Shown here piece after piece: positions 12,052 to 36,508 of a DNA stretch of 43,716 nt; the stretch's first letter is position 1; the number at the start of each line of letters is the position of its first letter. Source of the stretch: a virus. Location: positions 1-43,716 of the IMG/VR virus record IMGVR_UViG_3300018476_000018; one strand, written 5' to 3'. The position numbers were made by a program, and so were the translations under genes. The notes beneath the pieces were generated by a model. That model searched no databases. It was not told where the DNA came from and saw only the letters and a list, made by a program, of their open reading frames with translations.

Positions 12052-12174
12052 TTACTTGCCCTTGCGTTTAGTCGCCGTGAGCGACTTCAGGTCATTCTTT
12101 TTCATCAGCGCGACCATCCCTTTCTCTAGGGGGGTGTTCGGCGGATGACCTTTCGGCTTCGCTTTCGCTTTCAT
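12052..12174 (-). CDS. 40-aa basic micro-protein.
   Basis: ATG 12174 overlaps the upstream stop (ATGA). Sequence MKAKAKPKGHPPNTPLEKGMVALMKKNDLKSLTATKRKGK. Below the ORF-track cut-off. Confidence 0.4.
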   Translation of the reverse strand: MKAKAKPKGHPPNTPLEKGMVALMKKNDLKSLTATKRKGK

Positions 12175-12407
12175 TGATGGGCCTCTTCCAACAGCCTGCG
12201 AACGACCTCGCACGTCTCTATAACGGACAGCACCCGCCCGTCGGCCAGCCAGACGGCGCAGCGCGCCGCCGGGTTTGCTACTATGTTTCTGCCGGGCGTA
12301 GCGGCCGCATGCATGCTGGTGATCTGGGGGCCGGCGACAAGCACCTCGCCGCCATCGGCCCGGTGCAGCAACACCATAGCCAGCCCGGTGACCAGCAAGA
12401 GGTCCAC
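12171..12407 (-). CDS. Hypothetical protein (about 68-78 aa).
   Basis: GTG start at 12407 or an internal ATG at 12377. Its stop is coupled to the next micro-ORF. Confidence 0.45.
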   Translation of the reverse strand: MDLLLVTGLAMVLLHRADGGEVLVAGPQITSMHAAATPGRNIVANPAARCAVWLADGRVLSVIETCEVVRRLLEEAHQ

Positions 12408-12426: not shown

Positions 12427-13200
12427 TCAGGGGACGCCTTCCAGGGCTTCGAGGCGGGTAGCTAATTCAGCGATGGCTGTGACGCACAGCCAGATCAAAT
12501 GCCCCGGCTGCAGGCTCGGCACGTCGTCGCCCTCGGCTTCCAGCATCTCCGGCACGACTGCCGCCGCCTCGCTCGCCACGAGGCCGTAGCGGGTGTGCTC
12601 GCCGACGACAAAGCTCACCGGGCGGAGTTGCCGCAGCTCGGCGAGACCGGCGGTATAGGGCTGCACTTCAGTTGTCGCGCTGGCCGCGTGGGTTAGGTAA
12701 ACCGCGGCGGTAACGCTGCCGCCAGCGTAGATGTCGTTATTGCAAGTGAGCGCACCGACCGTGGCAATGTTGGGCACCGAGAGAGAACTGGCCTGCAAGA
12801 AACCGGTGGTGACGCTGCCGAGAATGGTGGCGCCGCCCTGGACGTTTAGACTGCCGGTGGTGCCGAGCCCGCCCGCGGTCACCGTGCCCGATATTGACGC
12901 CGCCCCCAGCGAGGACAGACTGCCGCCGAGGATGGCCCCCGACGCGGTGATGCCGCCAATGGTGCTGATGCCGGCGACGGAGTTTACCGTCAGCCCGCCA
13001 GTCATCCCGCCGCCGGTCGAGCTTACGTATGGCAGGGCGAGCGAGCCGTCGAGTACGTCGTCATACCAGCGCCGGATCGCCCCCATCATGGCCCGGGCGG
13101 AGTTGTTAACCATCGAATTTTGCATGAACTCCGGCCAGCCATCCGGCGGCGCCGCCGTATTGCTTTCATCGATCGGCGACCACGCTGAGATGTCTGCCAT
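12427..13200 (-). CDS. Tail fibre protein with a C-terminal intramolecular-chaperone-like (peptidase S74-like) module.
   Basis: Gly/Ser/Thr-rich repetitive middle section. The C-terminus LRPVSFVVGEHTRYGLVASEAAAVVPEML...LIWLCVTAIAELATRLEALE resembles the endosialidase-chaperone domain. The N-terminal ...PPDGWPEFMQNSMVNNSARAMMGAIRRWYDD resembles fibre anchor regions. Confidence 0.55.
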   Translation of the reverse strand: MADISAWSPIDESNTAAPPDGWPEFMQNSMVNNSARAMMGAIRRWYDDVLDGSLALPYVSSTGGGMTGGLTVNSVAGISTIGGITASGAILGGSLSSLGAASISGTVTAGGLGTTGSLNVQGGATILGSVTTGFLQASSLSVPNIATVGALTCNNDIYAGGSVTAAVYLTHAASATTEVQPYTAGLAELRQLRPVSFVVGEHTRYGLVASEAAAVVPEMLEAEGDDVPSLQPGHLIWLCVTAIAELATRLEALEGVP

Positions 13201-24305: not shown

Positions 24306-25634
24306 TTAAACGAAACCCATTTCCGGATATTTGATTTGCTTAGGTCTTCCGCGCGGAACTTCATATCCAACCGCCATCAGGCCGAACGCATCACTTCCGT
24401 TTGAGGCCCAATCGTGTTCGGGACCCAAACCTATATCCCTGACGTCTTCGCTTCTCTTCTCGTGATACCACGCCAATGCTTCGCGACCGCTCTCGGTGGT
24501 CGCCTCGTTAAACCAACACGCCGGAAATATTCTGCGCCCCGCCTCGACCCGTGCCCGCGCGGCGCCGCGGCCCTGGTTGGGAATGACCTCAACCGAGAAC
24601 CCAGCCTGGCGGAACGCGCTCTCGAAACTGACGTCGTAGACCCGGTCATGGGTCGCGCCGTCGTGCGGCAGAACGACCTGCGCCTTGGAAAAGTTATTGT
24701 CATGCAGCCACTGCACATGCGTCGCCAACGGCTGCCCAACCGCTTCGTAATAGCTCAGGATGCGAACTTCGCGGGCAACGAACTGAACCAGCCACATCGC
24801 AAAGGCGTCGCTGCGAGCACCGGTTCCGCCCAAATCGCAATAGGCCCGGATCGGCAGCAGCGGGTCGCGCATGACGCCGCCGATGCGGCCCTCGCGCCCG
24901 GCTTCCGCCAGGTGAGGGGCGTAATAGGCGCCGACGTGCGCCGATGCATACGCCCCCTCCCACACGAAATCGTAAGTGTCCGGGCGCTTTTCCTTGTCTT
25001 CCAGGCGGATCTGCTTCAGGACGCTCGGAAACCACGGGTTGTCCCGCCAGTTGACCTCGGCGATCTTGCTGTTGGCCGGCGGGTTGAGGCGGAACCGCTT
25101 GTTGGTGGCGCTCTGGCGGCGCTCCGGGTTCCACGTCACCCAGATCTCGGCGCCCTCCTCGCGCACCGTTGGGATTGCCTTCATCCAGGCGGTCTCGGAT
25201 ACCGGCTCGGCCTCGTCGACCCACAACAGCCGTATTCTGGCCGTCGATTTGACGCTTTCAATGTTACGGCGCAACCCGACAAAGGCAAAATCGATCTTGC
25301 CGTCGCGGGTTCTGATGTACTTCTCGCCGACCTCGTACATCGCCGCCAGCCAGGGCTCGCTCTCGATCGCCGCCTTGACCTCGGCCATGCTGCTTTCGTC
25401 GAGGCTGTTCTGAAACTCCCGGCCGCAGACGATGACCCCGGTCTCGTTGGCCTGCGCACAGCGCAGACCGTGAACGGCCGCCATCTTTGCGAAGGATCTC
25501 GATTTGGCCGAGCCGCGGCCGCCAAAAGCGCAGCGATAGAGCGCCGGGCCGTCGAACACCTCGACCAATTTCTCCGGCAACTCGATCCGGCCGGGCTGGT
25601 GCCCGGCGTCACGCCGGGCGCGCGCCGTGCTCAT
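24306..25634 (-). CDS. terL: Terminase large subunit (442 aa).
   Basis: Walker A-like FGGRGSAKSRSF and Walker B-like RIRLLWVDEAEPV, with a nuclease-half signature downstream. ATG 25634 overlaps the upstream stop (ATGA). The Arg/Gly-rich extension to 25886 was rejected. Confidence 0.85.
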   Translation of the reverse strand: MSTARARRDAGHQPGRIELPEKLVEVFDGPALYRCAFGGRGSAKSRSFAKMAAVHGLRCAQANETGVIVCGREFQNSLDESSMAEVKAAIESEPWLAAMYEVGEKYIRTRDGKIDFAFVGLRRNIESVKSTARIRLLWVDEAEPVSETAWMKAIPTVREEGAEIWVTWNPERRQSATNKRFRLNPPANSKIAEVNWRDNPWFPSVLKQIRLEDKEKRPDTYDFVWEGAYASAHVGAYYAPHLAEAGREGRIGGVMRDPLLPIRAYCDLGGTGARSDAFAMWLVQFVAREVRILSYYEAVGQPLATHVQWLHDNNFSKAQVVLPHDGATHDRVYDVSFESAFRQAGFSVEVIPNQGRGAARARVEAGRRIFPACWFNEATTESGREALAWYHEKRSEDVRDIGLGPEHDWASNGSDAFGLMAVGYEVPRGRPKQIKYPEMGFV

Positions 25635-25798
25635 TCCACCGCCGCCAGGCGTTCCGGCCGCTCCGGCCAGCGCCGCAACCGCTTTAGCTCGTCCTGCAGC
25701 AACGCTACCTCGACCTCCAGATCGAGCACCCGGGCCAGCAGATTGTTGCGCTGGTTGCGCAATACCGCCGCCTCCGACAGCGGCGCGGTGTCCGTCAT
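25631..25798 (-). CDS. Small coiled-coil protein (55 aa).
   Basis: ATG 25798 and the stop are both in ATGA overlaps. Sequence MTDTAPLSEAAVLRNQRNNLLARVLDLEVEVALLQDELKRLRRW.... Confidence 0.5.
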   Translation of the reverse strand: MTDTAPLSEAAVLRNQRNNLLARVLDLEVEVALLQDELKRLRRWPERPERLAAVE

Positions 25799-26016
25799 TT
25801 GGCCTCCGCCGCCGGCTTGCACGGTTCGCCGCAGAGCTTCTCCAGTTCGGCGATGCGGTTTTTCGCGGCAGCCAACGTCGCGGCAAGATCCTGCGCCTGC
25901 ACGGCCCGCTTTTGCAGATCCAACGACAGGATAATCCCGGCCTGCACCGGATCGGTTGGTTGTGCCGCCGCTAGCAACGGCAGCAACAAAACCGCCCAAA
26001 ACGCCGCTAGATGCAT
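25795..26016 (-). CDS. Exported or membrane-anchored coiled-coil protein (73 aa).
   Basis: ATG 26016. The N-terminal hydrophobic segment MHLAAFWAVLLLPLLAAAQP is followed by a helical segment and a C-terminal CGEPC. An i-spanin-like topology is possible but unproven. Confidence 0.45.
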   Translation of the reverse strand: MHLAAFWAVLLLPLLAAAQPTDPVQAGIILSLDLQKRAVQAQDLAATLAAAKNRIAELEKLCGEPCKPAAEAK

Positions 26017-27170
26017 GTCGCGCCGGAGGCTTCGTAAACCCGCTTTGTCGTAGTATCGATACACAAGAACCGCTTGCCGGTGCCGGTGCCAATCGGCGGC
26101 AGAGACTGGATCGACAAGGTGCCCCCACTGGGGGCCACGTTGACACTGGTGCCGGCCAGATTAAGCACCGCGTTGACCCCGCCTACCGCCACATTGGCAA
26201 GGCCGGGACCGCTACCGACAAACAGATCGTTGATGGAGCCGCCGATCCCTGTGCCGAGAATGTTGTTGCCGCCCGACGATATGCCGCCTGGCGGGTAGCC
26301 GACCAATTTCAGCATCCCGGACAGCGCCAAATCAACCGATGGCGCGGTAGAGGTAAAACTAAACTGGGGCGTATTGTTGCCAGCCACCGTCCCCGCCCCG
26401 ATACCCACCGCCCCCGATGCCCCGGTGTTATCGTAATACCCAAAAATCGAGCGTTGCGACGGCACGTTATTGCCCGAGCGCGCTACAGCGCCGGCAATAA
26501 AAGCCTCGGACGCGGCGCCCGACGCAGTGACAAACCCGCCGGTCCAATGAATAGGGTTGGGGCCGGCGGCCTGGCTTAACGGCAGAACGACATAAGCACT
26601 CGCCAAGGTCGGCTGCACCAGTGAGTCACCGGTCACCATAACGCCAATGGCCTGATTGGCGGCGTTCGAGACGATAAAATCGTACTCCGCCCCGACGATT
26701 ACCCGGTTTGTCCCCGAGGTCATGCCCTTCCCCGCGGCGTCGACCAGAACGGTGTTGACGCCCCACGTCTTGCACCCGTCGACCTCGCAAGTACCCGACC
26801 CGAACAGCAGCACCGAGTTTTGCCCAAAGCTGGGCGGCGTGCCGGCAACCGCCTGGTTGCGCAGATAGCCGGCTATCGCTGTCGTGTTGACCACGGTGGA
26901 ACCGGCCGGAGCCACGTTGATGCCGCGGATGGCGTCGTTGTTGGTATAGCCGCAGCCAGCGACCCCACCGCACACTGCGTTGGCGATCGACATCGCAGTG
27001 ACGCCAGGCTGGGTGAAGATCGAAAACGTCCCGGAGTCGATCGTTTGCGCTGCTGTTTTGCTGTCGGTCAACGCCGCGGGAGGCGTCTTGCTGAGCGGGT
27101 CCGATACCTGCTGCGCCAATGCCGGCGCGCAGAGCCCCGCGGCGAGCAGAAGCGCAGCGAGACGCCGCAT
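26007..27170 (-). CDS. Sec-exported Gly/Ala/Thr-rich protein (387 aa).
   Basis: Signal peptide MRRLAALLLAAGLCAPALA-QQ. The rest is beta-rich and repetitive Gly-rich. No domain recognised. Confidence 0.6.
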   Translation of the reverse strand: MRRLAALLLAAGLCAPALAQQVSDPLSKTPPAALTDSKTAAQTIDSGTFSIFTQPGVTAMSIANAVCGGVAGCGYTNNDAIRGINVAPAGSTVVNTTAIAGYLRNQAVAGTPPSFGQNSVLLFGSGTCEVDGCKTWGVNTVLVDAAGKGMTSGTNRVIVGAEYDFIVSNAANQAIGVMVTGDSLVQPTLASAYVVLPLSQAAGPNPIHWTGGFVTASGAASEAFIAGAVARSGNNVPSQRSIFGYYDNTGASGAVGIGAGTVAGNNTPQFSFTSTAPSVDLALSGMLKLVGYPPGGISSGGNNILGTGIGGSINDLFVGSGPGLANVAVGGVNAVLNLAGTSVNVAPSGGTLSIQSLPPIGTGTGKRFLCIDTTTKRVYEASGATCI

Positions 27171-27554
27171 CTAAATCTGCACCCAAGCCACGCCGGTGAA
27201 GGCGAGCTGCACCCAGCCGTAATTGCCGCCGATCACCAGGTTCAGCGCCCCCTCGATGGTAAAACCGCCGCCCGCCACGGTGATGTGATTGGCGCCGGCG
27301 TGCCCGGTGCTGTCCTTCACCGTGCATGTCTGGCCCGGGCTTGGCGCCGGCGGCAGGGTCACGGTCATCGGTCCCGCCGTACTATCGACCAGCACCAACC
27401 CGTTGGTCCCGGACGGCAGCGTTCCCGAGACGGTCACGCTGGTAAACCCCGGCTGCCAGGCGGGCCCCGGCGGACCCTGCTGGCCAACCCCGGCGATGAC
27501 CTCGATCACCGGCGTCGGCTGCGCGACGATGTCGATCGCTACGGTGTCGGCCAT
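27171..27554 (-). CDS. Small fibre-associated protein (127 aa) with a short G-X-Y stretch.
   Basis: GVGQQGPPGPAWQPG is followed by ...VTLPPAPSPGQTCTVKDSTGHAGANHITV...GWVQLAFTGVAWVQI, a pattern common in small phage tail-fibre-like proteins. No signal peptide. Confidence 0.5.
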   Translation of the reverse strand: MADTVAIDIVAQPTPVIEVIAGVGQQGPPGPAWQPGFTSVTVSGTLPSGTNGLVLVDSTAGPMTVTLPPAPSPGQTCTVKDSTGHAGANHITVAGGGFTIEGALNLVIGGNYGWVQLAFTGVAWVQI

Positions 27555-27991
27555 ACCACCGGGACCATGTTGTCAAATCTCGGATCGGGGCTCGGCAGGT
27601 AGGTCAGCCACACATCGCGCGGCGCATGCCACTCGTCGGGGTCGAAAACCCGCCCCAAACGGCGGTCACGGCCAAATGGTCCCCAGCGATTGGCGCGAGG
27701 CGGGTCTTCGGCCGTCGTCCTTGCCAGGATTGGCCGCTCCGGCGCGAGATGGCAGGAAAAATAACGACGCACCAACTCCTTGCGGTCATCGCCATACACG
27801 TTCAGGCGGCGGGCGGCGCCACCGTATATTTCCTCTCCGTTCGCAAGCTCGGGGTAAGCGTCAGTCACGAACCTGGATATACCGGCACAAGTCGTCCCAA
27901 GCGAGAGACCCAAGTCTCGTGCGATGTACCGTTGTGCCCGACCCGTGGCCCACTGGTACGCAGCCCATCCAGCCCAAACCGGCGCGGTCAT
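27539..27991 (-). CDS. Hypothetical protein (150 aa).
   Basis: ATG 27991 in an ATGA overlap. No signal peptide or domain recognised. Confidence 0.5.
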   Translation of the reverse strand: MTAPVWAGWAAYQWATGRAQRYIARDLGLSLGTTCAGISRFVTDAYPELANGEEIYGGAARRLNVYGDDRKELVRRYFSCHLAPERPILARTTAEDPPRANRWGPFGRDRRLGRVFDPDEWHAPRDVWLTYLPSPDPRFDNMVPVVWPTP

Positions 27992-28647
27992 TTCCAGTAC
28001 ACGAGCCCAATACCGGGAACCACGCGGAACTCCAGCGCCGCGCCCGGCCCGTGGCCGCTATCGGGCCCCCCAGCCACCGGCAAGCCCGCAGCGTCGGTCA
28101 CGCTCAGAAGCTCGACGTCATAGGCAAACGAGATTTCGACCAGCGCATTGTCGGGAAGACCCGGCGGCAACCGGATGGTCAGCGCCGCCAGCGGCCCGCT
28201 CGCCACATGCAGAGCAAATTCCGACCCCATGATCACGGTCTCGCCGCTCACCGGGTACACCACCCGCACCGAACCCATCACGGCAGGCCCCTCGATCGGC
28301 GACAGCGGCACCGCCGTTTGTGTCACGTCCCCCGTCACCAGGACTTTGCCCGCCACCAGGGTGCGGATATCGCTGCTGGCGTAGGTTATTTGCAGGTCCC
28401 ACACCCCGCGCGGCGGCAGGTTGGCGGTATCGGCCGGCAATATCGAGACGTCGACCGCGTTGGGCGCGATGACCCCGCAATAAAGCTGGGTCACCTGATT
28501 ACCGCCGGGCCGGTCGCGGATCTGCGCCGCGGCGACGGCGCCGGTAAAGTCGCTCGGCAGCGTCTTGGCCGCGTCCTGCCAGCAGACAAACCGCCAGCGC
28601 CCGGTGTCGCCCCGGTAGATGCACAGATCGTAAGTTCCAGGGGTCAT
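27988..28647 (-). CDS. Hypothetical beta-rich protein (219 aa).
   Basis: ATG 28647 in an ATGA overlap. No signal peptide. Confidence 0.5.
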   Translation of the reverse strand: MTPGTYDLCIYRGDTGRWRFVCWQDAAKTLPSDFTGAVAAAQIRDRPGGNQVTQLYCGVIAPNAVDVSILPADTANLPPRGVWDLQITYASSDIRTLVAGKVLVTGDVTQTAVPLSPIEGPAVMGSVRVVYPVSGETVIMGSEFALHVASGPLAALTIRLPPGLPDNALVEISFAYDVELLSVTDAAGLPVAGGPDSGHGPGAALEFRVVPGIGLVYWK

Positions 28648-29819
28648 GCCGCCGCCGTCAATACTGGCTTAATCGCGTTGAGCATGAGCGTCGTCGGCGG
28701 CGTGCCGGTCGGCGGATCGCCCAAGATCGGAATGCCGGTTGTGCCGCCCTCGCTGCACTCGTTCCAGGCGTAGACATACATGAGCTTGGAAGCACACTCG
28801 GTTGGGTGCGCGCCGATAAAATTGATGCAGTTTTGCAGATGCGTCGCGACCTGGGCGGGGGTGCCGCGGACAAAATACTGATCGTGCCCGTTCCAGGGAG
28901 TGCGCGGGCTGTCGCTTTCCGGGATTTGCATCCGAGGACGCACGTCCCACCCCAGAATGGCATTGGGGACGTATTTGATACCGGCGGCAGTAGCTTGCGC
29001 CATCTTTGCCGCCCACCACGCCTGCGTCATCGTGTCGAGATCGGCGGCCGTGTTCGGCAGCGCCGAGTTAAGCAGTGCCGGGTTGTAGTCGGTGATCGCG
29101 TCGGCGGTAATCCAGGGTGCCGCTTGCACCGAGCTGGGGTTGCCCCACGGATCGGCGCGCGAAACGATATACGGGTTGCCTACTCCTGCCGCAGTCGCCT
29201 GTGATCGCAAATAGTTGAATGCCGTGGTGACATTTGCCGTCGAGTTGGCAAAATGCGTCGCCAGAGTGTCGGCGTGCCAACTGATAATCAGAACCGGCCT
29301 GCCGCCTATCTTGAGGTAATTTGTCTGGGTAAACTGATTGTTCACCCACCAATTGCAATGCGACTGCCACGCCGCCGTGTCCGACCAGGGGTTGTTGCCG
29401 AACTCCTCCTGCCCGACATATCCAGCCCATTTGACCAGGCCTTTATAAGGCGAAGAATTGTATAGCTCGTAAGCCTTGAAAACAGGGCTGCCATCGGGAA
29501 TAAACTTTGGGCCGTTGACATAAGCAAAAGCCTTAATCCCCGCGTTCGCCGCCGCCTGCAATTCCAAATCCACGTCGGCCTGGGTGCCTTCGCAAGTGAT
29601 CCGCTCGGGACCGAGAACATTGCAGAACCACGGCGCTCGGAACTGCCACTGCGCCGGGCTCAATTGAACGTGGTTCTGCCGCGACGGGTTCTGTAGCGAG
29701 TACCAGCCGCCCCAGTTAATAAAGATCGGCGTCACGCCGGTTGTCTGCGCCGCAGCCGGGCGTGGCCTGATCAGCGATGCAGCAGCGGCCGAGGCGAGGA
29801 GGGCGCGCCGGGTAATCAT
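28644..29819 (-). CDS. Tat-exported putative glycoside hydrolase (TIM-barrel, GH99/WbsX-like), 391 aa.
   Basis: Twin-arginine signal MITRRALLASAAAASLIRPRPAAAQ. The motifs ELQAAANAGIKAFAY, YLKIGGRPVLIISW and YVYAWNECSEGG resemble GH99-like/WbsX-type domains. ATG 29819 (ATGA overlap) is preferred over GTG 29831. Confidence 0.45.
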   Translation of the reverse strand: MITRRALLASAAAASLIRPRPAAAQTTGVTPIFINWGGWYSLQNPSRQNHVQLSPAQWQFRAPWFCNVLGPERITCEGTQADVDLELQAAANAGIKAFAYVNGPKFIPDGSPVFKAYELYNSSPYKGLVKWAGYVGQEEFGNNPWSDTAAWQSHCNWWVNNQFTQTNYLKIGGRPVLIISWHADTLATHFANSTANVTTAFNYLRSQATAAGVGNPYIVSRADPWGNPSSVQAAPWITADAITDYNPALLNSALPNTAADLDTMTQAWWAAKMAQATAAGIKYVPNAILGWDVRPRMQIPESDSPRTPWNGHDQYFVRGTPAQVATHLQNCINFIGAHPTECASKLMYVYAWNECSEGGTTGIPILGDPPTGTPPTTLMLNAIKPVLTAAA

Positions 29820-30904
29820 AGGACCGTCCACTGTGTTTTATCCGGCGTCGAGACGGCAAACCATTGACCGTCTTTGTGAACTTCCAGGCAGATACTGGCA
29901 AACGGCTGATTTGACGTTATCTTGCCGCCCGCTATCGAGTTGGTCGCACCGATAGCGATCTTATCGCCGGGGGCTGCCTGCACGGTAAAGAGCTGCGGTT
30001 CATCGACCGCGAAGCAGAAATTACCGCCGCCTGTTCCTGCCTGCCCGACCGGCACCGCTTGAACCAAGGCCGCCGGCAGTGTCAATGTTGTGAAGGCCGG
30101 GGTCCCGTCGCCGGAGAGCCAAGTATTGTGATAATGCGTGCCGGCCTCCCCGATTGGGACCGTGTAAGCACCGTGCGCCCGATGCGTCGTTATCCGTTCC
30201 CCGACAATCCGAACCCCATGGCCGTCAGATTTGATCTGCGACGGCTGCGCAGTGGTGTTCGATGCAATAAACGTGAGCTGACCAGTCCCACTAACCGGGG
30301 CATCGTTGTCCTTTAGCCCGACGTTAACCGTGCCGACGCCTTTAGGCCGCAGCTCCAACCCGACATTGGCCGTGCCCGCCGCCGATATCTGGGCAGTGGC
30401 GTCATCACGCGCCACGAGCTTGACCCAAGCCCTGGAGTAGCCCGTCTCCGGGCCTGCCGGCGGCACATAGCCGGTATTGCGAAAGCTGAACTCGGCAACC
30501 CCGCCCGCGCCATTGCCAAAAAAATGCCGGCTGGCCCAGCCCCGACTGATGTAGTTGCAATCCGCCGTCGTCCCGACGCTCGTCTGGCAAACTCGGGTCG
30601 CACCGGCCCCGGTTTTGCCGGCCTGCTCGATCGCCCAATCCGTTGCGTCGGGATCGGTTTGTACCTGAAACTGGATCTTGTCGTAGCTGTAGTTGATGTT
30701 ATCGCCAGGGACATTGGTGTAGCCGTAGAATTTGGTCGACGCAGCGGCGTTCGGCGGCGCGGCGCCCTCCGACTTTACCGTCCCCAGCTCCAGGTTCTGC
30801 CGCGCCGCCGGCAGTTCCGCGTTCTTGGCGTCCTGGTACATATCCGCCAGCACCGCGGTCGTTGCCAGCGACAGGACGGCGGCGATCAGGATGCGCTTCT
30901 TCAT
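29816..30904 (-). CDS. Sec-exported protein (362 aa) sharing an N-terminal module with the next gene.
   Basis: Signal peptide MKKRILIAAVLSLATTAVLA, then DMYQDAKNAELPAARQNLELG. ATG 30904 shares one nt with the upstream stop. Confidence 0.6.
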   Translation of the reverse strand: MKKRILIAAVLSLATTAVLADMYQDAKNAELPAARQNLELGTVKSEGAAPPNAAASTKFYGYTNVPGDNINYSYDKIQFQVQTDPDATDWAIEQAGKTGAGATRVCQTSVGTTADCNYISRGWASRHFFGNGAGGVAEFSFRNTGYVPPAGPETGYSRAWVKLVARDDATAQISAAGTANVGLELRPKGVGTVNVGLKDNDAPVSGTGQLTFIASNTTAQPSQIKSDGHGVRIVGERITTHRAHGAYTVPIGEAGTHYHNTWLSGDGTPAFTTLTLPAALVQAVPVGQAGTGGGNFCFAVDEPQLFTVQAAPGDKIAIGATNSIAGGKITSNQPFASICLEVHKDGQWFAVSTPDKTQWTVL

Positions 30905-33501
30905 CAATGCGCCTCCCAGCTCGTGCCGTTGCAATAAGCCAGCACCGCTATCGTGCCGCCGCCGGTCAACGCCCCCCGATAAGTTGGCGCGCTAAGCTGG
31001 TCCGATACCGGAACCATTGCGTGCTTAGTAACCGGACCGCAGGAAAACAATGTCGCTACCGTAACCGGTGCCATTTGAAAACCGGCATTATTAAACCTCC
31101 CCCGCTCGATCGAGGAGGTAGCAAAAACTATTGGCGCAGCACCGTTAGTCGTAATCAACCCGGCAGCAGTATTCTGAAATATCAGCTTGCCGAGGTTAGC
31201 ATTGGGCACCCCGGTAATCGCATTGCCGGTTACCCCAGACCCCGCATACTGCAAACCGACAGCACTGAAAGTTGAAGAATAATCATGCGCTATTAGAGAA
31301 AGCTGCATATAGGAATTAGCTACCGAGTTTTGGAATACCGCTTGTTTGTTAGCACCCCATATATAAAAAGGAGCATCGTTAAACTGTGACACCCGCCCCA
31401 GCGCGAGTTCACCGGTATGATTATAAAAATTGTGTGGCGGAAACTGCATCCGACCGTTGTAATCCATAAACGTCAGATTACCGTGCCCCGGCCGCTCAGC
31501 AATCACCGGCGCATTGTTCGCCTGATCAAACCCGGTAATAAGCACATTCGTCGACGGCGTTGCACTGCTTTCCAAACCCCGGATCACGCTCGATGTCGAG
31601 AGGGCTTCAAAGATACCCGAGTTTGCGTGATCAGTTTCGCCCGTGCCGTAGACCGGCCCGGCGATATCGACGCCGTAAACTTTCTGGGTGCCACGCTGGA
31701 AAAAGTGGACGTTCTTGACGTTTAGGTTATCCAGCACCCCCAGATAAAGTAGGGGGGCACTTTGATAAACCCCCCACAGATTGCGGATGATAGCGTAATC
31801 GCTGTCGTTACCGGACGGCCCACTGGCATAGTACAGTCCGATACCGTCGCTAAAGTTTGCGTTGAGAAAACTAATATCGTGGATTTCGGCGTGCTGGAAA
31901 TTGGCGCCGGTCACCCCGTCGGTATACATATCGTATTTAGTGCAGGCGTCAAAGCTCAGCCAGCCATACTCCGGCATCTCCTGCGCCCGCGCGTCGAGCC
32001 CCACCGCCGCCACCGGGGTCGACCATTTAGGAAAAATCCCGTTGGGTATGCCGCAGCTAAATCCCACCCCCAGCATCTTGTTCCAGACCGCACCTTGGGC
32101 GCCGGTTATCGGCTGGTCTTTCCACATCGTACCGCCAACCGGACCCAGCCATTGCAGGGTCGACCCGGTTGGAATGATACCGCTCTGCATCCCGCCGACC
32201 GGCGATTTCGAGGTGCCGTGCAACTCGGTGCTGGCACCCGACCGGGTCACCGTCGAGGCGATGCCGCAGGGGCGCTCCGGCATCTCAATAGCAGCGCCGG
32301 TCTGTGGCTCAGGCCACAGATGCGGGTTCATCGCTGTGTTAAACGCCGCGCTGTCGTCGGTGCCGTAGACCAACGACAAACCGTTGTAAGCCGGCATCGG
32401 AGAGAACGTCGCACCCGTGCCCGTGCCGCTCGTGCTCGCCTGGGTGAACTCGGCCGGAATACCGCCATTGGCGTAAAGCCCCGGCGTCAGCGGCGCGATC
32501 AGATCGACATCCATCGTCAGGTTAAGGGTCACCCCGGTCGGCAATGTCATCCCCGGCGCCACTGTCGCTATGCTGGCCGTGGCCGGGGTGGTCGGGTTCG
32601 AGGTGTAATGCCCGCCATCGGTGATCGCGAACCCGGTGGCGATACCGCCAGCTACCGTCAGGTTGCCGACCACCCGCATACCGTTACCGGTCGTGCCGTA
32701 GACCTCGTAGGTCCCGTTGGTGCCGCCGGTACCGCCCGCCGCGATCGTCGCAACTCGCACGTAAGTTTTCTGCACCGTACCGATCGCCGCCGTGCCGCCG
32801 GTCGCCGACAAGGTGCCGCCGGCAAGAGTGATCGTATCGCCCGGCGCATAACCGCTGCCGGTCGCCTTCGACAACAACCCGGTCGTAAACATATTGAGCG
32901 TACCGGGTACACTTGGCGCGCCCAACGTCGCGGTTGTTGTGCTGGTCGGGGTTATCGTCGTGCGCAGAATATTACCGCCGGCTGCGTGACCGCTGATCGT
33001 TACAAGTTTTGGTTTACCGATATCCTTAAACGGCGCCAGTACCGTGATCGCCGTCAATCCTACGGTCTGGCTAGGACTAACGATATATGTCCCGGTGCCG
33101 CCACTCCCGGTGCCGTGCCCGGTTACTTTCGTACCCGAAGCTATACCCGTACCCGTGATAACCGACCCGATCTGCGGCGGGGTGCCCGACAACGCCGTCA
33201 CATCCATCGTGTTGCCGGTGATCGACGCCGTGCCGGTGCCGGGATTAAGCGTTACCGTCGTGCTGCCGGCGGCGATCGTGTAGGCACCGACGATATACTC
33301 GACGTCACACTTCGCGCCGAAATCGGTCACGTTGCGGGTAATACCGAGATTTGTCTTTGTTGCCGGCCTTGCGTTGTCCGCGTTATTCGACATCGCCCCG
33401 AGATTGTTCAAAGCGGCCGGTAGATCAGCGTTGGAAGCATCCTGGTACATATCCGCGCGCAGCAGGATAAGCGCCGCCACGGCCATGAGAAAGCGTCTCA
33501 C
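30904..33501 (-). CDS. Large exported beta-helix-like protein (865 aa), pectate-lyase/tailspike-depolymerase-like.
   Basis: GTG 33501 (GTGA overlap). N-terminal MRRFLMAVAALILLRA, then DMYQDASNADLPAALNNLG. ITRNVTDFGAKCD resembles the start of pectate_lyase_3/tailspike domains. Long Gly/Thr-rich beta-repeats. Confidence 0.45.
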   Translation of the reverse strand: MRRFLMAVAALILLRADMYQDASNADLPAALNNLGAMSNNADNARPATKTNLGITRNVTDFGAKCDVEYIVGAYTIAAGSTTVTLNPGTGTASITGNTMDVTALSGTPPQIGSVITGTGIASGTKVTGHGTGSGGTGTYIVSPSQTVGLTAITVLAPFKDIGKPKLVTISGHAAGGNILRTTITPTSTTTATLGAPSVPGTLNMFTTGLLSKATGSGYAPGDTITLAGGTLSATGGTAAIGTVQKTYVRVATIAAGGTGGTNGTYEVYGTTGNGMRVVGNLTVAGGIATGFAITDGGHYTSNPTTPATASIATVAPGMTLPTGVTLNLTMDVDLIAPLTPGLYANGGIPAEFTQASTSGTGTGATFSPMPAYNGLSLVYGTDDSAAFNTAMNPHLWPEPQTGAAIEMPERPCGIASTVTRSGASTELHGTSKSPVGGMQSGIIPTGSTLQWLGPVGGTMWKDQPITGAQGAVWNKMLGVGFSCGIPNGIFPKWSTPVAAVGLDARAQEMPEYGWLSFDACTKYDMYTDGVTGANFQHAEIHDISFLNANFSDGIGLYYASGPSGNDSDYAIIRNLWGVYQSAPLLYLGVLDNLNVKNVHFFQRGTQKVYGVDIAGPVYGTGETDHANSGIFEALSTSSVIRGLESSATPSTNVLITGFDQANNAPVIAERPGHGNLTFMDYNGRMQFPPHNFYNHTGELALGRVSQFNDAPFYIWGANKQAVFQNSVANSYMQLSLIAHDYSSTFSAVGLQYAGSGVTGNAITGVPNANLGKLIFQNTAAGLITTNGAAPIVFATSSIERGRFNNAGFQMAPVTVATLFSCGPVTKHAMVPVSDQLSAPTYRGALTGGGTIAVLAYCNGTSWEAH

Positions 33502-35156
33502 GGTATGCTCCAGAAGCTCTTCTGATTAGCATGTAGCGCCGCCCGCTCCCCAGACGTAGATGCGCTAAACCAGACTATAAACTCTCGTTCGTCACAAACA
33601 TTCCCCGGCGTTTCATTACCAGCAGCAACATATAAGTTTGTTCCACCAATTACATTCATCGTGCCGACTGTCTCGGCATTTGCGTCAACCAAACCAACCC
33701 CAGCAACACCCGGCGCAAAAACTCCCGTCAGCGAGTGCCAGTTAAGCGCGGTCCATCCGGCGGGATTTATATTATGCGTACCATCAACAATGTATAAAAT
33801 GTCATAGTCTGCGTGTGGTACTATTTGCTGTTGCCCAGCACCAGCAAAATAACATGACAGAAACCCGCCAGGAGTTGGGCGTGTCGTCTGCCGAGCCACA
33901 GCGTTAAGCGTCATTGAAGCGCCTATCGGCAGCGCTACCGTTAGCTCAACTTGCTGAGTATTTGTCACTCGAACACACGGTAACCCATCCCCGCAATTTG
34001 CCAGGAACGCCGGCTGGATCGCCGTCGTCACCTGCGCCAGGTGCCGCGTGTTGCCGCTCTGGTCGTAGAGCGTGCGGACGAAACAGGTTGTGCTGGCGCA
34101 GAACGCGTTCGCCGCCGCCGTATCGATGGGCGCGCCGGTAAAGCCGGTGAAACCCAGGAAACCGATGTCCTGCTCGGCATTGTCGCTGGCTCGGCGCAGG
34201 CGGATCGCCGGGCCGGCGTAGCTGCTCTTCAGCTTGCGCAGGGAGTAAGCGCCGCTCGGGGCGGCGAAGGTGTCGAGCGGCAGCGGCATCCAATAGTTGC
34301 GCTGGTTCTGCTGCAGCGCGGTGCGCTCAGCGCCGGTCAGCGCGTAGCCATTCCACACCACCGCCTCGGTCTGGCTGCACTGGCTCGATGCCGCCGGGTT
34401 GTTCTGTGCGTTAAACCCGCCCGCCACCACGCTGCCGGTGATCGTCCCGGCCGTCTCCGCGCCGTCTATGTTGAAAACGCTCGATGCCCCGTTGACCACC
34501 CCCTCGGCCGCATGCCACGCCCCGTCCGCCGCCGTCGCGATGATGCTGCCGCTGGCGCCAAAGAGCTGCCAACTGTTCGCCGCCGCCGGCGTGATGATCT
34601 GATTGTGCGGCGCCGCCGACGCCATGCTCAGCAAATAACAAGCGTTGCCGCTCGTCACGTTGCGATGCGCCACCGTGGACAAGCTCACCGGCATGGCGGG
34701 CGTCACCGTCCCCGCCATCAACAAAACCGTGCTCGCCGACAGCGCCCTGGCGCACGGCAAGCTGCCGTTGCAGTTGGCGATGTATTGCGGCTGGTTCGCC
34801 GCCGTCGCCTGCACGAGATGGCGCGCGTTGCCCGATTGATCGTACCAAGTGTCGAGGAAACAGGTGGTCGCGGCGCAGAAGGTGGCGGCGGTTGCCGTGT
34901 CGAAATCGTTGCCGACAAAGCCAATGTCTTGGGTACCGCCGGTCGTCCGGCGCAGCTTTACCGCTGACCCGGCGTATGCCGTCCGGAGCTTCCTGAAGGA
35001 ATACGCCGCCGCAGGGGCGGTAAACCCGTCCAGCACCCCCGCATTGGCCGGGATTATCCGGTGCCCGCGATACGGCGCATGCATGCGCGCAGATGCCGGG
35101 ACAGCAATCGCTGCCGCCAGCAACAGCGCCAGCGCCAGGCGCACCGGCTCCGGCAT
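33498..35156 (-). CDS. Sec-exported protein with two tandem GH54-type (alpha-L-arabinofuranosidase B catalytic / concanavalin-like) domains (552 aa).
   Basis: Signal peptide MPEPVRLALALLLAAAIAVPASA. The block AYSFRKLRTAYAGSAVKLRRTTGGTQDIGF...FCAATTCFLDTWYDQSGNARHLVQ recurs as AYSLRKLKSSYAGPAIRLRRASDNAEQDIGF...FCASTTCFVRTLYDQSGNTRHLAQ. Both match the fungal AbfB N-domain block ALYSS(F/Y)SG.LYQ..RGSD...I....FC..TTC.I.IIYDQSGNGNHL.Q, which I recalled from memory. Confidence 0.6.
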   Translation of the reverse strand: MPEPVRLALALLLAAAIAVPASARMHAPYRGHRIIPANAGVLDGFTAPAAAYSFRKLRTAYAGSAVKLRRTTGGTQDIGFVGNDFDTATAATFCAATTCFLDTWYDQSGNARHLVQATAANQPQYIANCNGSLPCARALSASTVLLMAGTVTPAMPVSLSTVAHRNVTSGNACYLLSMASAAPHNQIITPAAANSWQLFGASGSIIATAADGAWHAAEGVVNGASSVFNIDGAETAGTITGSVVAGGFNAQNNPAASSQCSQTEAVVWNGYALTGAERTALQQNQRNYWMPLPLDTFAAPSGAYSLRKLKSSYAGPAIRLRRASDNAEQDIGFLGFTGFTGAPIDTAAANAFCASTTCFVRTLYDQSGNTRHLAQVTTAIQPAFLANCGDGLPCVRVTNTQQVELTVALPIGASMTLNAVARQTTRPTPGGFLSCYFAGAGQQQIVPHADYDILYIVDGTHNINPAGWTALNWHSLTGVFAPGVAGVGLVDANAETVGTMNVIGGTNLYVAAGNETPGNVCDEREFIVWFSASTSGERAALHANQKSFWSIP

Positions 35157-35159
35157 CCG

Positions 35160-35513
35160 CTACAGCCCGTCCCCCGGCGTTATATATAACGTCGCCGCCG
35201 TGCCAGCGCTGATCCCCGCCACATACTGCTGCAGATTGCAGCTCAGCACCTCGACGCTGGCGGGGGCGATCGGCATGCCGGCCGCGACCGTGGCGACGCT
35301 GGCAACATCGCCGCAGACGATAAAGGCCGGGACCGTGCCGCTATTATATATCCGGAAATGCGGGCTATTCGCCGCCGTCTGAACCTGCACCCGCGCCGTC
35401 GCGCCGGTTACGGATAGGGTTACCGTGGGGCCGCCGGGGGCAAACGCATTCTGCGCCGAAGCGGGAAAAACCGCCGCGAGACACAATGCCGCCACCAAAA
35501 GACTAGGTTTCAT
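35160..35513 (-). CDS. Small Sec-exported protein (117 aa).
   Basis: ATG 35513. Signal peptide MKPSLLVAALCLAAVFPASA-QN. The ORF-track start at 35612 was rejected. Confidence 0.55.
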   Translation of the reverse strand: MKPSLLVAALCLAAVFPASAQNAFAPGGPTVTLSVTGATARVQVQTAANSPHFRIYNSGTVPAFIVCGDVASVATVAAGMPIAPASVEVLSCNLQQYVAGISAGTAATLYITPGDGL

Positions 35514-35790
35514 GCGGCTCTCTCTGTGTGGCGGGTGTCTCATTAGGGTCTCGCGCGCGTGTGTGGCGCGCGTGTGTGTGCGCAGCGCGCGGTTTAGATT
35601 GTCGCCAGACAACCGTCAGCCCGACGCCCTGCAGCTCGTATTCCAGGTCGCGCGCCTCGTCGCTATCGCGATCGATATCGCGACACCACGAACTGCCGCG
35701 TGGACCGTACCGGCGAAAGCCGTTTTCAAAGAATGCTCGCCGCAGGTTTACTGGAGCGTCATAGACAACCATGAGTTGCGGCTCACTCAT
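35503..35790 (-). CDS. Hypothetical protein (95 aa).
   Basis: ATG 35790 (MSEPQLMVVYDAPVNLRRAFFENGF...). The C-terminal part is encoded by an alternating CG/TG tract. Overlaps the next start by 11 nt. Confidence 0.4.
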   Translation of the reverse strand: MSEPQLMVVYDAPVNLRRAFFENGFRRYGPRGSSWCRDIDRDSDEARDLEYELQGVGLTVVWRQSKPRAAHTHARHTRARDPNETPATQREPHET

Positions 35791-35992
35791 GCCGGTTCCA
35801 AAAAAAATATTTGGGCGGGGTGGGTAAACGTGGGGGTGGGTGGGGCCCACGCCACCGCCAGCATGGAACCATCCGCGTCAGGGTGTCGGGCCGATGCTGT
35901 CTTCTATACGCGTGCGCGCGAGGGGAGCAGGGCGTATGCGGATACACTCTCCGCAACACCGCCGCAGTAATGCTGGCGTTTAGCCCTGTTAG

Positions 35993-36508
35993 CTACTTTG
36001 TCCCATCATCGCTGCCATCATCTTGATGGTCGATCGTGATCTGCTTCGGCCGCACGGCCACCAGCTCTATGCGCGTGAGGAGTGGCGCGTTGGCGTCGCC
36101 GCTGATCTCGACCTTGTCGCCGTATATCTTAGGCAGAACCTTCGATAGCAGCCACTTCCTGTTGTCCGACATCAGCCTGGCGTGCTGCACAAGCGCGTTG
36201 TCGGGATGACCATTATGGATGATTGGTGCGTCACCAATCGCGATCACTTCATCGGCCAGTTTCTCGTAACCAATAGATTTCGCACGCGCGTATCGAGCAC
36301 CGAAGTCAGCGCGGTCCAACGCCCACTTTCGTATGGCGCTTTGCACTGGCATACCCGGCGATCGGCATATCGCTGCCAGCGGCTCACCATCCGCCAGTCT
36401 GTCACATATCTCATCGGCCAGCGCTTGCGTGTACACCGGCTGCGAGCCGTTGCGACCACCGCGTTTAGCGCCTTTGGGGGTGCCCGCTTTGCGCTTGGGT
36501 GCGGGCAT
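35993..36508 (-). CDS. terS: Terminase small subunit, Sf6 gp1 type (171 aa).
   Basis: YTQALADEICDRLADGEPLAAICRSPGMPVQSAIRKWALDRADFGARYARAK...ARLMSDNRKWLLSKVLPKIYGDKVE parallels Sf6 gp1 (Y.PEVADDICSLLSSGESLLKVCKRPGMPDKSTVFRWL...FRDKYAKA...ARLRVDTRKWALARMNPRKYGDKV), recalled from memory. Confidence 0.8.
   Translation of the reverse strand: MPAPKRKAGTPKGAKRGGRNGSQPVYTQALADEICDRLADGEPLAAICRSPGMPVQSAIRKWALDRADFGARYARAKSIGYEKLADEVIAIGDAPIIHNGHPDNALVQHARLMSDNRKWLLSKVLPKIYGDKVEISGDANAPLLTRIELVAVRPKQITIDHQDDGSDDGTK

Follow-up and report, generated by a model that had tools for sequence, protein, structure and literature searches.

The window, meaning the whole stretch of DNA analysed here (43,716 nt), holds the complete 43.6 kb genome of an uncultured, podovirus-like and probably temperate phage, which carries temperate hallmarks at 3.7-6.2 kb (a cI-like and Cro-like HTH pair, a Xis-like ORF and an IS110-type recombinase). 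Its two terminase genes, both on the minus strand, lie 10,358 nt apart, and the island between them consists of 12 tightly coupled ORFs. The features are listed below from terS to terL.

35993..36508, minus strand: terS, small terminase subunit of the Sf6 type (Pfam PF20901, Sf6_terminase; PHROG), upstream border of the island
35791..35880, minus strand: conserved non-coding element GGTTCCAT..GGCCCC..C-rich..AATATTTTTTTTGGA, in the 202-nt gap after terS
35503..35790, minus strand: p95, putative 95-aa ORF without signal peptide, called in L003 and L004
35160..35513, minus strand: p117, Sec signal peptide and a jellyroll of ~95 aa with a conserved Cys pair
33498..35156, minus strand: p552, signal peptide and two ConA-like/GH54-N-type domains, 12 Cys
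30904..33501, minus strand: p865, signal peptide, 'DMYQDASNA.LP..NLG' N-module and all-beta body (possible beta-helix), 6 Cys
29816..30904, minus strand: p362, signal peptide, N-module as in p865 and a body of no assigned family, 4 Cys
28644..29819, minus strand: p391, twin-arginine (Tat) signal and WbsX-like glycoside-hydrolase-type domain, 6 Cys
27988..28647, minus strand: p219, LtfC-like beta-sandwich, no signal peptide
27539..27991, minus strand: p150, small HTH-like ORF without signal peptide, unique to this genome
27171..27554, minus strand: p127, short fibre-proximal-type protein, no signal peptide
26007..27170, minus strand: p387, Sec signal peptide ('ALAQQVSDPLS' N-module) and tail-fibre-like body, 6 Cys
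25795..26016, minus strand: p73, signal peptide or TM segment (heuristic signal call), coiled coil, CxxxC
25631..25798, minus strand: p55, conserved small coiled-coil ORF of 55 aa overlapping the terL start, kept in L005 and L170
24306..25634, minus strand: terL, large terminase subunit (phrog_3717 at 1.5e-57), downstream border of the island

Both terminases had been correctly named and placed in a preliminary description of this DNA. TerS matches PF20901 at 112.6 bits and phrog_1482 at 5.9e-36, and an identical protein occurs on ENA contig ERZ27251438 k141_1264692; terL is 64% identical to that of Mae-JY35 (60-64% across Mae-JY35 and the Sulfitobacter pCB2047 phages). The ten intervening genes counted there are in fact 12 ORFs, the omitted ones being 25631-25798 and the putative 35503-35790. 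The coupling it described is real: the island genes are coupled in translation to each other and to terL, every junction from p95 to terL measuring -16 to +3 nt, and the only real gap is the 202 nt after terS. The non-coding element in this gap was aligned across 12 clade loci, gave neither a conserved RNA fold nor an Rfam match, and is a candidate promoter or pac-type site. Among the smaller ORFs, p95 appears to be a weak gene (GC3 just 0.62, homologue in relatives absent), p55 overlaps its neighbours by 4 nt at each side and has a C-terminus nearly identical in L005 and L170, and p73 has homologues in L090, L093 and L187. No family match for p150 was found in Pfam/PHROG-type searches, and L005 and L170 have no such ORF separating p219 from p127.

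Comparison of gene order showed that terS and terL are adjacent in more distant relatives, as had been expected: nine loci from outgroup lineages, whose terL is no more than 67% identical, have the two genes spaced by -24 to 113 nt, and a further one (L126) by 464 nt. Within the clade this adjacency is broken. The p117-p552 cassette lies between terS and terL in ~25 loci, whereas in other relatives it is placed between terL and portal (6 loci), between portal and scaffold (4) or amid tail genes (L197); on the other backbones of L171 and L173 the block is found in the tail-fibre slot. The split, singled out earlier as a special feature, is a trait of the clade and incidental, since the cassette takes up varied late-operon junctions in sister lineages. 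On our reading the terS-terL interval is a mobile, hypervariable accessory cassette in the late (packaging and morphogenesis) operon. Its modules were found in no GenBank phage.

Export signals were scored with our own von Heijne-type heuristic. All seven N-termini named beforehand were positive, six as Sec-type and one as twin-arginine, so that the number seven stands, out of 12 ORFs and not ten. Such signals are concentrated in the island, both in the window (7/12 ORFs against 2/33 elsewhere; Fisher p = 5e-4) and across the clade (27/43 against 5/77 outside; p = 4e-11). They are translated, and they are conserved as a property. Start codons of the MYQDA family overlap the upstream stop (TGATG or ATGA) in nine of ten loci; here the GTG start of p865 and the stop of p552 share 4 nt, and p362 starts in a TGATG overlap with the p865 stop. 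The signal codons have coding periodicity (GC1/2/3 = 0.76/0.50/0.78), and p117 starts are preceded by GGAG-type Shine-Dalgarno motifs. The signal sequence is free to vary and the mature N-terminus is kept in ~90 p117 homologues, in 27 of 31 p391 homologues and in 53 proteins with the 'DMYQDASNAKLP..NLG' N-module, for which a profile search returned 60 representative proteins, 53 of them signal-bearing. The start/stop overlaps, together with varied signals ahead of constant mature N-termini, argue that the signals are genuine, as had been proposed. Mature Cys counts are even in every case (2, 12, 6, 4, 6, 6 and 2 in p117, p552, p865, p362, p391, p387 and p73), and N-terminal export modules are conserved while C-terminal bodies are exchanged.

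The small jellyroll protein p117 has 96 homologues with hypervariable signal peptides (diverse h-regions, AxA site) and a conserved mature N-terminus, QNAFAPGGPTV. Its AF2 model has a pLDDT of 86.9, and the fold is common to 158 BFVD phage proteins, mostly of ~100 aa. Cys67 is present in 87/88 signal-bearing members of the family and in 0/7 signal-less ones; signal peptide and cysteine pair were acquired together in this family. The signal-less homologues lie amid tail-fibre genes of other phages. The double GH54/concanavalin-like nature of p552 was confirmed by two stretches matching PF09206 (ArabFuran-catal, GH54 N-terminal part) at 2e-23, a match that covers only the first ~73 of the 315 profile positions, and phrog_10356 was also hit. 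This domain is found in minor tail proteins of Gordonia and Arthrobacter phages. In 10 loci a diverse signal region precedes a conserved mature 'RMHAPYRGHR', and two orthologues are without an alternative internal Met.

For p865, described before as beta-helix depolymerase-like, the top Foldseek matches are indeed beta-helix glycanases/lyases and tailspikes, the secreted beta-helix-type RbmB of V. cholerae among the best, at E-values of 1e-4 to 1e-3 with TM scores of at most 0.17 and a model pLDDT of 58, values at which a beta-helix is a possible fold. Five full-length homologues are known. Local GC in this region is low (0.52-0.55). Homologues of p362 occur in L095, L106, L171 and L173. The WbsX-like and twin-arginine assignments of p391 were both upheld, with PF14307 at 29.2 bits (cut-off 25.1) and an [ST]RR.[LF][LI] motif in those 27 of 31 homologues. 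A relative at 33% identity sits in a bacterial glycosyltransferase cluster (L172), and p391 is predicted to be a Tat-exported WbsX-like hydrolase of the polysaccharide-synthesis-cluster type.

The proteins p219, p127 and p387 are of fibre type. The signal-less p219 matches phrog_1084 at 2e-20 and PF23926 at 6e-4, which is under its cut-off, and is 77% identical to its L005 counterpart. Its neighbour p127 matches phrog_972 (tail fibre proximal subunit) at 4e-6, and its N-terminus recurs in L091 and L096 as part of a fusion with a collagen-like fibre of ~550 aa. The p387 body matches phrog_32740 (tail fibre) at 2e-19, and over residues 22-247 p387 shares 32% identity with the tail fibre of Burkholderia phages Bcep1 (gp51) and BcepNY3, the match beginning at the predicted cleavage site. 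Taken with the signal-less kin of p117 and the p552 domain, these matches indicate that most island families originate from tail-fibre modules. The statement that this is not a conventional tail-fibre cluster is supported in part, by the export signals, the carbohydrate-directed domains and a separate fibre, but the block derives from tail-fibre-module families. The phage has its own signal-less tail fibre with an S74 chaperone domain (12427-13200), so the block is not needed as its only fibre; L171 too has separate fibres or spikes without signals. The PEP-CTERM protein gene reported earlier was recovered (PF07589 at 30.9 bits).

On balance we lean towards an accessory cassette that is expressed late and whose products are exported to act on envelope polysaccharide. 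Tail-fibre modules, namely a small jellyroll (p117), ConA-like lectin domains (p552) and fibre/beta-helix-like bodies (p865, p362, p387), appear to have been recruited, and p117, p552, p865, p362, p387 and p391 to have gained predicted cleavable Sec or Tat signals and disulfide cysteines; since both were acquired, the phage most likely sends these proteins out of the cytoplasm rather than assembling them into particles. Secretion in place of virion binding, and EPS as the target, are what we infer. The proteins would be produced late in infection, judging from gene arrangement, exported by the host Sec/Tat machinery and folded oxidatively in the periplasm, and lysis would free them more widely. 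Their substrate would be polysaccharide of the infected cell's own envelope (EPS, capsule or LPS), and binding and cutting it could free progeny from the matrix, destroy or mask receptors on the dying cell and debris, and keep superinfecting phages out. A periplasmic glycan target is plausible given the p391 relative in a glycosyltransferase cluster, the p865/RbmB-type matches and the PEP-CTERM gene; in a diderm host Sec/Tat export would end in the periplasm, and proteins exported in this way would require an additional step to act on extracellular EPS before lysis. The varied cassette position and the separate signal-less fibres or spikes of this phage and L171 suggest an accessory, not a structural, role.

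Against export as the end point, the fibre-module ancestry of all families and the tail-fibre slot in L171 and L173, where a small w78-like fibre-associated ORF co-travels, also fit a virion role. The proteins could be side fibres or depolymerase spikes matured outside the cytoplasm, exported for their disulfides and docked after holin/endolysin lysis mixes the compartments, with the mature N-termini ('DMYQDASNAKLP..NLG', 'QQV.NPMS') as docking peptides, perhaps via p117/p552 or p219/p127. Constant N-modules with exchanged bodies, as in tail-fibre evolution, and the signal-less fibre stubs p219 and p127 beside signal-bearing bodies would suit this. We nevertheless regard it as unlikely: we know of no tailed phage whose fibres are exported and then attached after lysis, dilution at lysis would make attachment inefficient, genes for structural parts do not usually change place among head, portal and terminase genes as this cassette does, the phage already has a signal-less fibre, and the kin of p391 are polysaccharide-cluster enzymes, not virion proteins. 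That the block is an ordinary cytoplasmic tail-fibre cluster, its hydrophobic N-termini being over-extended ORFs (high GC) or trimerisation helices, is highly improbable. Conserved internal Met codons (MYQDA, MHAPYRG) could serve as alternative starts, and one public gene caller placed the P0098 start at MYPDA; a signal peptide is nevertheless present upstream of that start, L094 and L102 have no internal Met, and members of the p117 and p391 families, which offer no alternative start, have textbook Sec/Tat signals over 30-100% identity. The start/stop overlaps, the periodicity of the signal codons and the correlated gain of signal peptide and Cys speak against it as well.

Expression from the prophage, for instance from the conserved element after terS, is also unlikely. 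The block would then be lysogenic-conversion or auxiliary cargo that remodels the lysogen's EPS/O-antigen (superinfection immunity, floc/biofilm) or scavenges community polysaccharide for the host. The cI-like, Cro-like, Xis-like and IS110-type genes, the PEP-CTERM gene, the element ahead of the block, the signal peptides on some prophage CAZymes (PMC13507307) and a bacterial Tat-exported tailspike-fold enzyme that trims its own EPS (PMC7949094) agree with such a role. However, the block is coupled directly into terL and portal, terminators are not enriched (17 found, 11.7 +/- 3.9 expected), the promoter is a candidate only, and the element, seen only where the cassette follows terS, stays behind when the cassette sits elsewhere.

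The exported accessory cassette that we favour shares domain families (ConA-like/GH54-N, fibre body, possible beta-helix, LtfC-like, fibre-proximal) with virion fibres and tailspike depolymerases such as P22 gp9, the CBA120 TSPs, Bcep1 gp51 and actinophage GH54-like minor tail proteins. It also shares their modular evolution, with constant N-termini and swapped C-terminal bodies, and in some phages it adjoins tail genes. It differs in that predicted cleavable Sec/Tat signals replace the N-terminal virion-anchor domain, in its paired cysteines and in not being fixed in the tail module. Exported phage morons located beside tail/receptor-binding genes, such as lambda Lom/Bor, T5 Llp and phi80/N15 Cor, target receptors at the envelope, giving superinfection exclusion or protecting progeny from debris. 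Each is one small outer-membrane protein or lipoprotein, often expressed from a promoter of its own. The island likewise encodes signal-bearing accessory proteins within or beside structural genes, but it has up to seven of them, which are large, modular and directed at glycans, and their genes are translationally coupled within the late operon. Sec-exported and SAR endolysins (Oenococcus fOg44 Lys44, P1 Lyz) show that late phage proteins reach the periplasm via host Sec before lysis; they are muralytic lysis enzymes, whereas the island proteins showed no peptidoglycan-hydrolase domain. An export signal on a tailspike-like or TIM-type glycanase, as predicted here, is also known from Pantoea WceF (Tat signal, tailspike fold, EPS trimming; PMC7949094), V. 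cholerae RbmB and periplasmic enzymes of the PslG/AlgL/BcsZ type. Those enzymes act on the producer's own polysaccharide, and their genes belong to EPS operons of the bacterium itself, whereas the island genes are phage-borne, multiple and part of a morphogenesis operon. Finally, signal peptides occur on ~5% of 64,678 prophage CAZymes (pCAZymes), reported as single, scattered auxiliary genes (PMC13507307), unlike the island, where several genes recur together as a cassette that has dedicated N-modules and descends from tail fibres.

The first 123 nt of the window (1-123) are identical to the last (43594-43716), a repeat that leaves a unit of 43,593 bp, and the sequence is therefore a phage genome in complete form, either circular or terminally redundant. 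It has a GC content of 64%, and the minus strand carries almost all of the genes. The structural module is of podovirus type, with terL followed by portal, scaffold and major capsid protein genes, and includes ejection proteins, virion proteins of tail-tubular type, a conventional tail fibre and a large internal protein in which a transglycosylase-like domain is recognised. A temperate lifestyle is hinted at by genes at 3.7-6.2 kb, which encode HTH proteins resembling cI and Cro, an Xis-like product and a recombinase of IS110 type. The recombinase gene (5173-6150, plus strand) and a 75-aa holin-like ORF with two TM segments (6635-6862) flank an array in which an 18-nt unit is repeated in tandem about 21 times (6197-6589, period 18/36, GCGAGAACCC../GCGCGAGCCC..), which looks iteron-like or att-like. 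One relative with a 98% terL match (L170; ENA ERZ25039556 contig_39817, 109,935 bp) is placed at its contig end; it could be a long-read concatemer or else a prophage in its integrated state, in which case the contig would show the host. The best terL matches in genome bins are on MAG contigs of Steroidobacteraceae, Pseudolabrys and Hyphomicrobium.

Features of the window discussed below; island ORFs, all on the minus strand, are named by their length in amino acids
12427-13200, signal-less tail fibre with a Peptidase_S74 chaperone domain, in the structural module
24306-25634, terL, large terminase
25631-25798, minus, p55, conserved coiled-coil ORF (..LLARVLDLEVEVALLQDELKRLRRWPERPERLAAVE) overlapping p73 and the terL start by 4 nt each
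35503-35790, minus, p95, weak 95-aa ORF
35791-35880, minus, conserved non-coding element of about 80 nt (GGTTCCAT..GCGGTGGCCCC..C-rich..CCCGAATATTTTTTTTGGA)
35993-36508, terS, Sf6-type small terminase (PF20901, 112.6 bits, curated cut-off 27)
43512-43716 continuing at 124-635, minus, PEP-CTERM protein of 238 aa (PF07589, 30.9 bits, cut-off 20.7)

The distance from terS to terL is 10,358 nt. The small terminase assignment of the preliminary description stands on its PF20901 score, but its count of ten intervening genes does not: there are twelve ORFs, p55 and p95 having been overlooked. Its proposal of translational coupling agrees with the spacing, since each junction from p95 through terL measures -16 to +3 nt; the sole non-coding stretch of the interval is the 202 nt after terS. 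Gene order shows a late-operon cassette with translational coupling.

Gene order was compared by tblastn of the window proteins, for which 169 loci were fetched. Inserts of 1.0-6.8 kb part terS from terL in the clade whose terL is at least 72% identical (L005, L092-L106, L113), whereas in outgroups (terL at most 67% identical) the gap is -24 to 113 nt in nine loci and 464 nt in one. Adjacency, which had been described as the normal arrangement, is therefore ancestral, and the split is a trait of the clade, its content varying between members. p117 and p552, placed immediately behind terS, vary least in presence; after them come one to three proteins with a common N-terminal module on differing bodies, a signal peptide and then A|DMY[QP]D[AG]SNAKLP.A..NLG. 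A two-sequence profile of this module, searched against 1.84 billion representative proteins at E <=1e-3, gave 62 matches, 60 of them new, and 53 of the 60 have a signal-like prefix and the motif within residues 1-50; these range from 52 to 933 aa with unrelated bodies. A second module, ALAQQV.[DN]P[LM]S, is common to p387, a 571-aa protein of L005 and proteins of L106 and L171. Together these matches show a modular build in which the N-terminal modules are kept and the bodies exchanged. p55 recurs in L005 and L170; an HTH-like ORF, p150 (27539-27991), is inserted between p219 and p127 only in the window and is absent from both.

The positions of the cassette were recorded in 80 fetched viral loci encoding p117 relatives.

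Positions of the p117-p552 cassette
Between terS and terL, about 25 loci
Between terL and portal, L177, L194, L206, L210, L212, L221
Between portal and scaffold, L181, L182, L188, L189
Between tail-tubular-type genes, L197
Downstream of p219, several loci

On unrelated podovirus backbones a larger block is placed in the tail region. In L171 it comprises p117, a three-domain p552, p865-like and p362-like proteins and a Tat-bearing p391-like protein, flanked by an internal virion protein and S74-type virion proteins; a fibre without signal and a spike resembling an EPS depolymerase are encoded by the same phage. The block of L173, on another backbone, ends with a homologue of the small ORF at 12171-12407, which in the window follows the conventional fibre. 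The orientation is always that of the structural genes. From these varied positions the cassette is therefore mobile late-operon cargo with terS/terL as one of several landing sites, and the split of the terminase genes is incidental. It behaves as variable-position cargo but is not a moron in the sense of inserted genes flanked by their own promoter and terminator: the junctions are tight, and promoters and terminators inside the island do not exceed the shuffled expectation.

The small ORF just mentioned has a hydrophobic N-terminus followed by 'HRADGGEV' and occurs at window 12171-12407 (minus), L102 3399-3638, L173 5159-5398 and L091 1892-2116, always just downstream of fibre genes, signal-less or signal-bearing. 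A role as a membrane protein or chaperone associated with fibres is possible, and its 'LL(H)RAD' junction is similar to the one in the MYQDA signal peptides.

The element at 35791-35880 is also found in L005, L092, L093, L095, L099, L102, L103, L105 and L106, and in three copies in L113. It is not part of the mobile cassette, being absent at the other insertion sites and present only in the terS context, and a structured RNA or terminator was rejected for want of a consensus fold (3 pairs, -1.3 kcal/mol); no Rfam family was found in the window. Candidate roles for the element are binding of a protein, a pac-type site and a late promoter.

Export signals were called with our own simple heuristic for n-, h- and c-regions and the -3/-1 positions. 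Sec (SPase I) signals were defined by a positive n-region, 8-18 hydrophobic residues free of charge as h-region, small side chains at -3/-1 and a length of 15-35 aa, and Tat signals by an [ST]-R-R-x-F/L-L-K-type motif followed by a moderately hydrophobic h-region and an AxA site. By this heuristic p117, p552, p865, p362, p387 and p73 carry Sec signals, kept in homologues as the sequence diverges, and p391 carries a Tat signal (N-terminus MITRRALLASAAAASLIRPRPAAA|Q), whose canonical twin-arginine motif is kept in 27 of 31 homologues at identities as low as 31%. All seven signals listed in the preliminary description, six Sec and one twin-arginine, were thereby recovered. Signal-positive ORFs by the same heuristic number 7/12 in the island and 2/33 in the rest of the window (Fisher p = 5e-4), the two outside being one holin-like TM protein and one marginal case; across the clade they number 27/43 in the island (ORFs of at least 100 aa) and 5/77 outside (p = 4e-11). 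Lipoprotein signals were rejected, as the signal peptides lack a conserved lipobox Cys. The mature parts of all seven signal-bearing proteins have even numbers of Cys (2, 12, 6, 4, 6, 6 and 2), mostly in close pairs; these counts, like the joint gain of signal and Cys pair described below for p117, speak indirectly for translocation and cleavage.

Because over-extended ORFs in high-GC DNA can mimic signal peptides, and internal Met codons exist, the start codons were tested directly. Internal Met codons conserved at MYQDA and MHAPYRG are possible alternative starts, which speaks in favour of false signals on an ordinary fibre cluster. On the other side, the MYQDA-family start overlaps the upstream stop (TGATG or ATGA) in 9/10 related loci, the p865 start in the window is a GTG with a 4-nt overlap with the p552 stop, the signal codons show coding periodicity (GC1/2/3 = 0.76/0.50/0.78), GGAG-type Shine-Dalgarno motifs precede p117 starts, and in the p552 orthologues of L094 and L102 the internal Met is absent, so that the alternative start is lacking in these two. 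We regard false signals as very improbable.

The p117 family is informative on the origin of the signals. All 96 homologues come from metagenomic sources; about 90 full-length members have textbook Sec signals, in which the signal sequence drifts and the mature N-terminus Q-x-AF-x-PGG-x-TV is fixed. Distant relatives lack the signal peptide and start exactly at this conserved 'mature' N-terminus. Cys67 is present in 87/88 signal-bearing members vs 0/7 signal-less ones, and both Cys are present in 80/88 of the former. Signal peptide and disulfide thus appear to have been gained together, which makes the family a clean natural experiment in evolution; such a joint gain is hard to explain unless the protein reaches an oxidising compartment, and for this reason export is well supported. 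From their sequences, the seven proteins are very probably exported.

The signal-less relatives are found among tail-fibre and minor-tail genes of other phages; signal-less family proteins of about 100 aa without the Cys pair were seen in eight loci (L238, L242, L245, L247-L251), among tail-fibre genes of phages with 45-66% GC. The AF2 model of p117 (pLDDT 86.9) consists of a signal helix and a jellyroll, a fold common to 158 BFVD phage proteins at TM 0.7-0.85; most of these are about 100 aa long and so would not have a signal peptide. No PHROG or Pfam model covers the family. The best PDB fold match, an Ena-type pilus (spore-appendage) subunit, was rejected (TM 0.44, N-terminal Cys connector absent), as was paralogy with the 164-aa ORF that follows the gene for the capsid protein (0.2% probability in hhalign), and p117 is treated, on its model, as a generic jellyroll.

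Among the other island proteins, p552 has two repeats, each matching positions 15-87 of 315 of PF09206 (GH54 catalytic domain), with the catalytic residues outside the match. The double GH54/concanavalin-like protein proposed earlier is thus present as two PF09206 stretches, but only the N-terminal quarter of the GH54 domain is matched, hence it is treated as a putative ConA-like binding module and not as a proven GH54 hydrolase; minor tail proteins of phages of Gordonia and Arthrobacter contain this domain type too. The suggestion of a WbsX-like protein at p391 gained support from PF14307 (29.2 bits, cut-off 25.1; profile positions 130-334 of 350). A Tat-bearing p391 relative, 33% identical, is encoded within a bacterial cluster of glycosyltransferase genes (L172, a contig of 102 kb), a context that recalls, by analogy, the periplasmic polymer-trimming enzymes of EPS (exopolysaccharide) operons. 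For p865 there are just five full-length homologues and a widespread domain of about 170 aa, and no Pfam match. Its AF2 model is mediocre (mean pLDDT 58), and the best Foldseek matches are beta-helix enzymes and tailspikes (E 1e-4 to 1e-2, TM <=0.17), including GH87 and V. cholerae RbmB glycanases/lyases; on this model a 'beta-helix depolymerase' is plausible but unproven. Sequence searches of the PDB with p865 and p391 were uninformative, and an exact-protein look-up of p865 with two start choices found nothing, the start in the public gene call being Met6. GC is 0.52-0.55 in p865 and at the p552/p865 boundary (31000-32000, 33000-34000) vs 64% for the genome, which suggests that p865 and p552 may have undergone recent module exchange or import.

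Fibre-type proteins are represented by p219 (LtfC-like) and p127 (fibre-proximal), both without signal, and by p387. The p127-type N-terminus heads a collagen-like fibre in L091 and L096. In the window p127 and p387 share one frame with a single TAG between them (27170-27173); read-through fusing them is unlikely because the shared frame is not conserved, the frames differing in L005 and L170. Residues 22-247 of p387 resemble the Bcep1/BcepNY3 tail fibre, the similarity starting right past the predicted cleavage site, and a PHROG fibre profile matches from position 77. A virion tail fibre was defined by an N-terminal virion-attachment domain and a fixed tail-module position; the fibre homology of p387 starting at residue 22 and the varying cassette position depart from both.

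Outside the island, a PEP-CTERM gene crosses the circular junction, amid early genes (RusA, methyltransferase). Its 238-aa product begins MRWISLPAVALLVASTPAFA and has the N-terminal signal peptide, C-terminal PEP motif, TM helix and basic cluster by which such proteins were recognized. The profile score upholds the earlier call, and the gene fits a host with an exosortase/EPS system.

Our preferred reading, held with a little more confidence than doubt, is that the island is an exported accessory cassette acting on envelope polysaccharide. The proteins would be made late, exported into the periplasm and folded oxidatively there, and would bind or cut host envelope polysaccharide in the periplasm and, after lysis, outside the cell. 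Such attack could free progeny from the matrix, and could strip receptors from the dying cell and debris or exclude other phages. Alongside it, the comparisons show late-operon coupling, ancestry of the proteins in fibre modules and EPS clusters, and fibres without signals that these phages encode apart from the block.

Expression from a prophage as conversion cargo has a real though minor chance; it would suit the temperate hints, and has the late-operon placement of the cassette to set against them. That the proteins are fibres which mature in the periplasm and attach to virions after lysis is unlikely; the fibre homology of p387 speaks for it, the separate signal-less fibres and the shifting cassette position against. 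Quite unlikely is a more elaborate version, by which a tailed-phage clade has re-routed a whole tail-fibre module via Sec and Tat for fibre/depolymerase assembly outside the cytoplasm, with mature N-terminal peptides docking on the p117 jellyroll and p552 lectin to give post-lysis virion fibres or a fibre/enzyme array on the infected-cell envelope; the shared N-modules would supply such peptides.

Megablast of the island region against GenBank phages, and tblastn of the N-module consensus and p391 against 50,697 GenBank phage records, gave no match, and we found no literature report of signal-bearing tail-fibre modules or of terS/terL split by fibre genes. As a recurrent mobile unit, the cassette was seen on phage contigs from metagenomes, well over 100 of them, but not in any phage in culture. 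If the preferred reading of an exported, polysaccharide-directed cassette is true, phages can convert receptor-binding and depolymerase modules into exported proteins, and the contest between phage and host over glycans gains an arm in the periplasm or outside the cell (escape from the matrix, destruction of receptors, superinfection exclusion). For annotation, fibre-like virome ORFs are not safely assumed to be virion parts; for application, the cassette is a predicted source of modules that bind or cleave glycans, are secretable by nature and are stabilised by disulfides.

Late-operon cargo, phage depolymerases and exported phage proteins are known ingredients; their combination is not known, namely a cassette of several genes, mobile and recurrent, whose fibre-derived products jointly acquired disulfides and signals for export. 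T5 Llp, lambda Lom and Sec-exported or SAR endolysins are precedents for the logic of exported phage proteins. The same logic applies to the prophage CAZymes that bear signals, about 5% of the total (PMC13507307), and the logic of export with trimming of the producer's own EPS has a precedent in Pantoea WceF, a Tat-exported tailspike-fold enzyme (PMC7949094).
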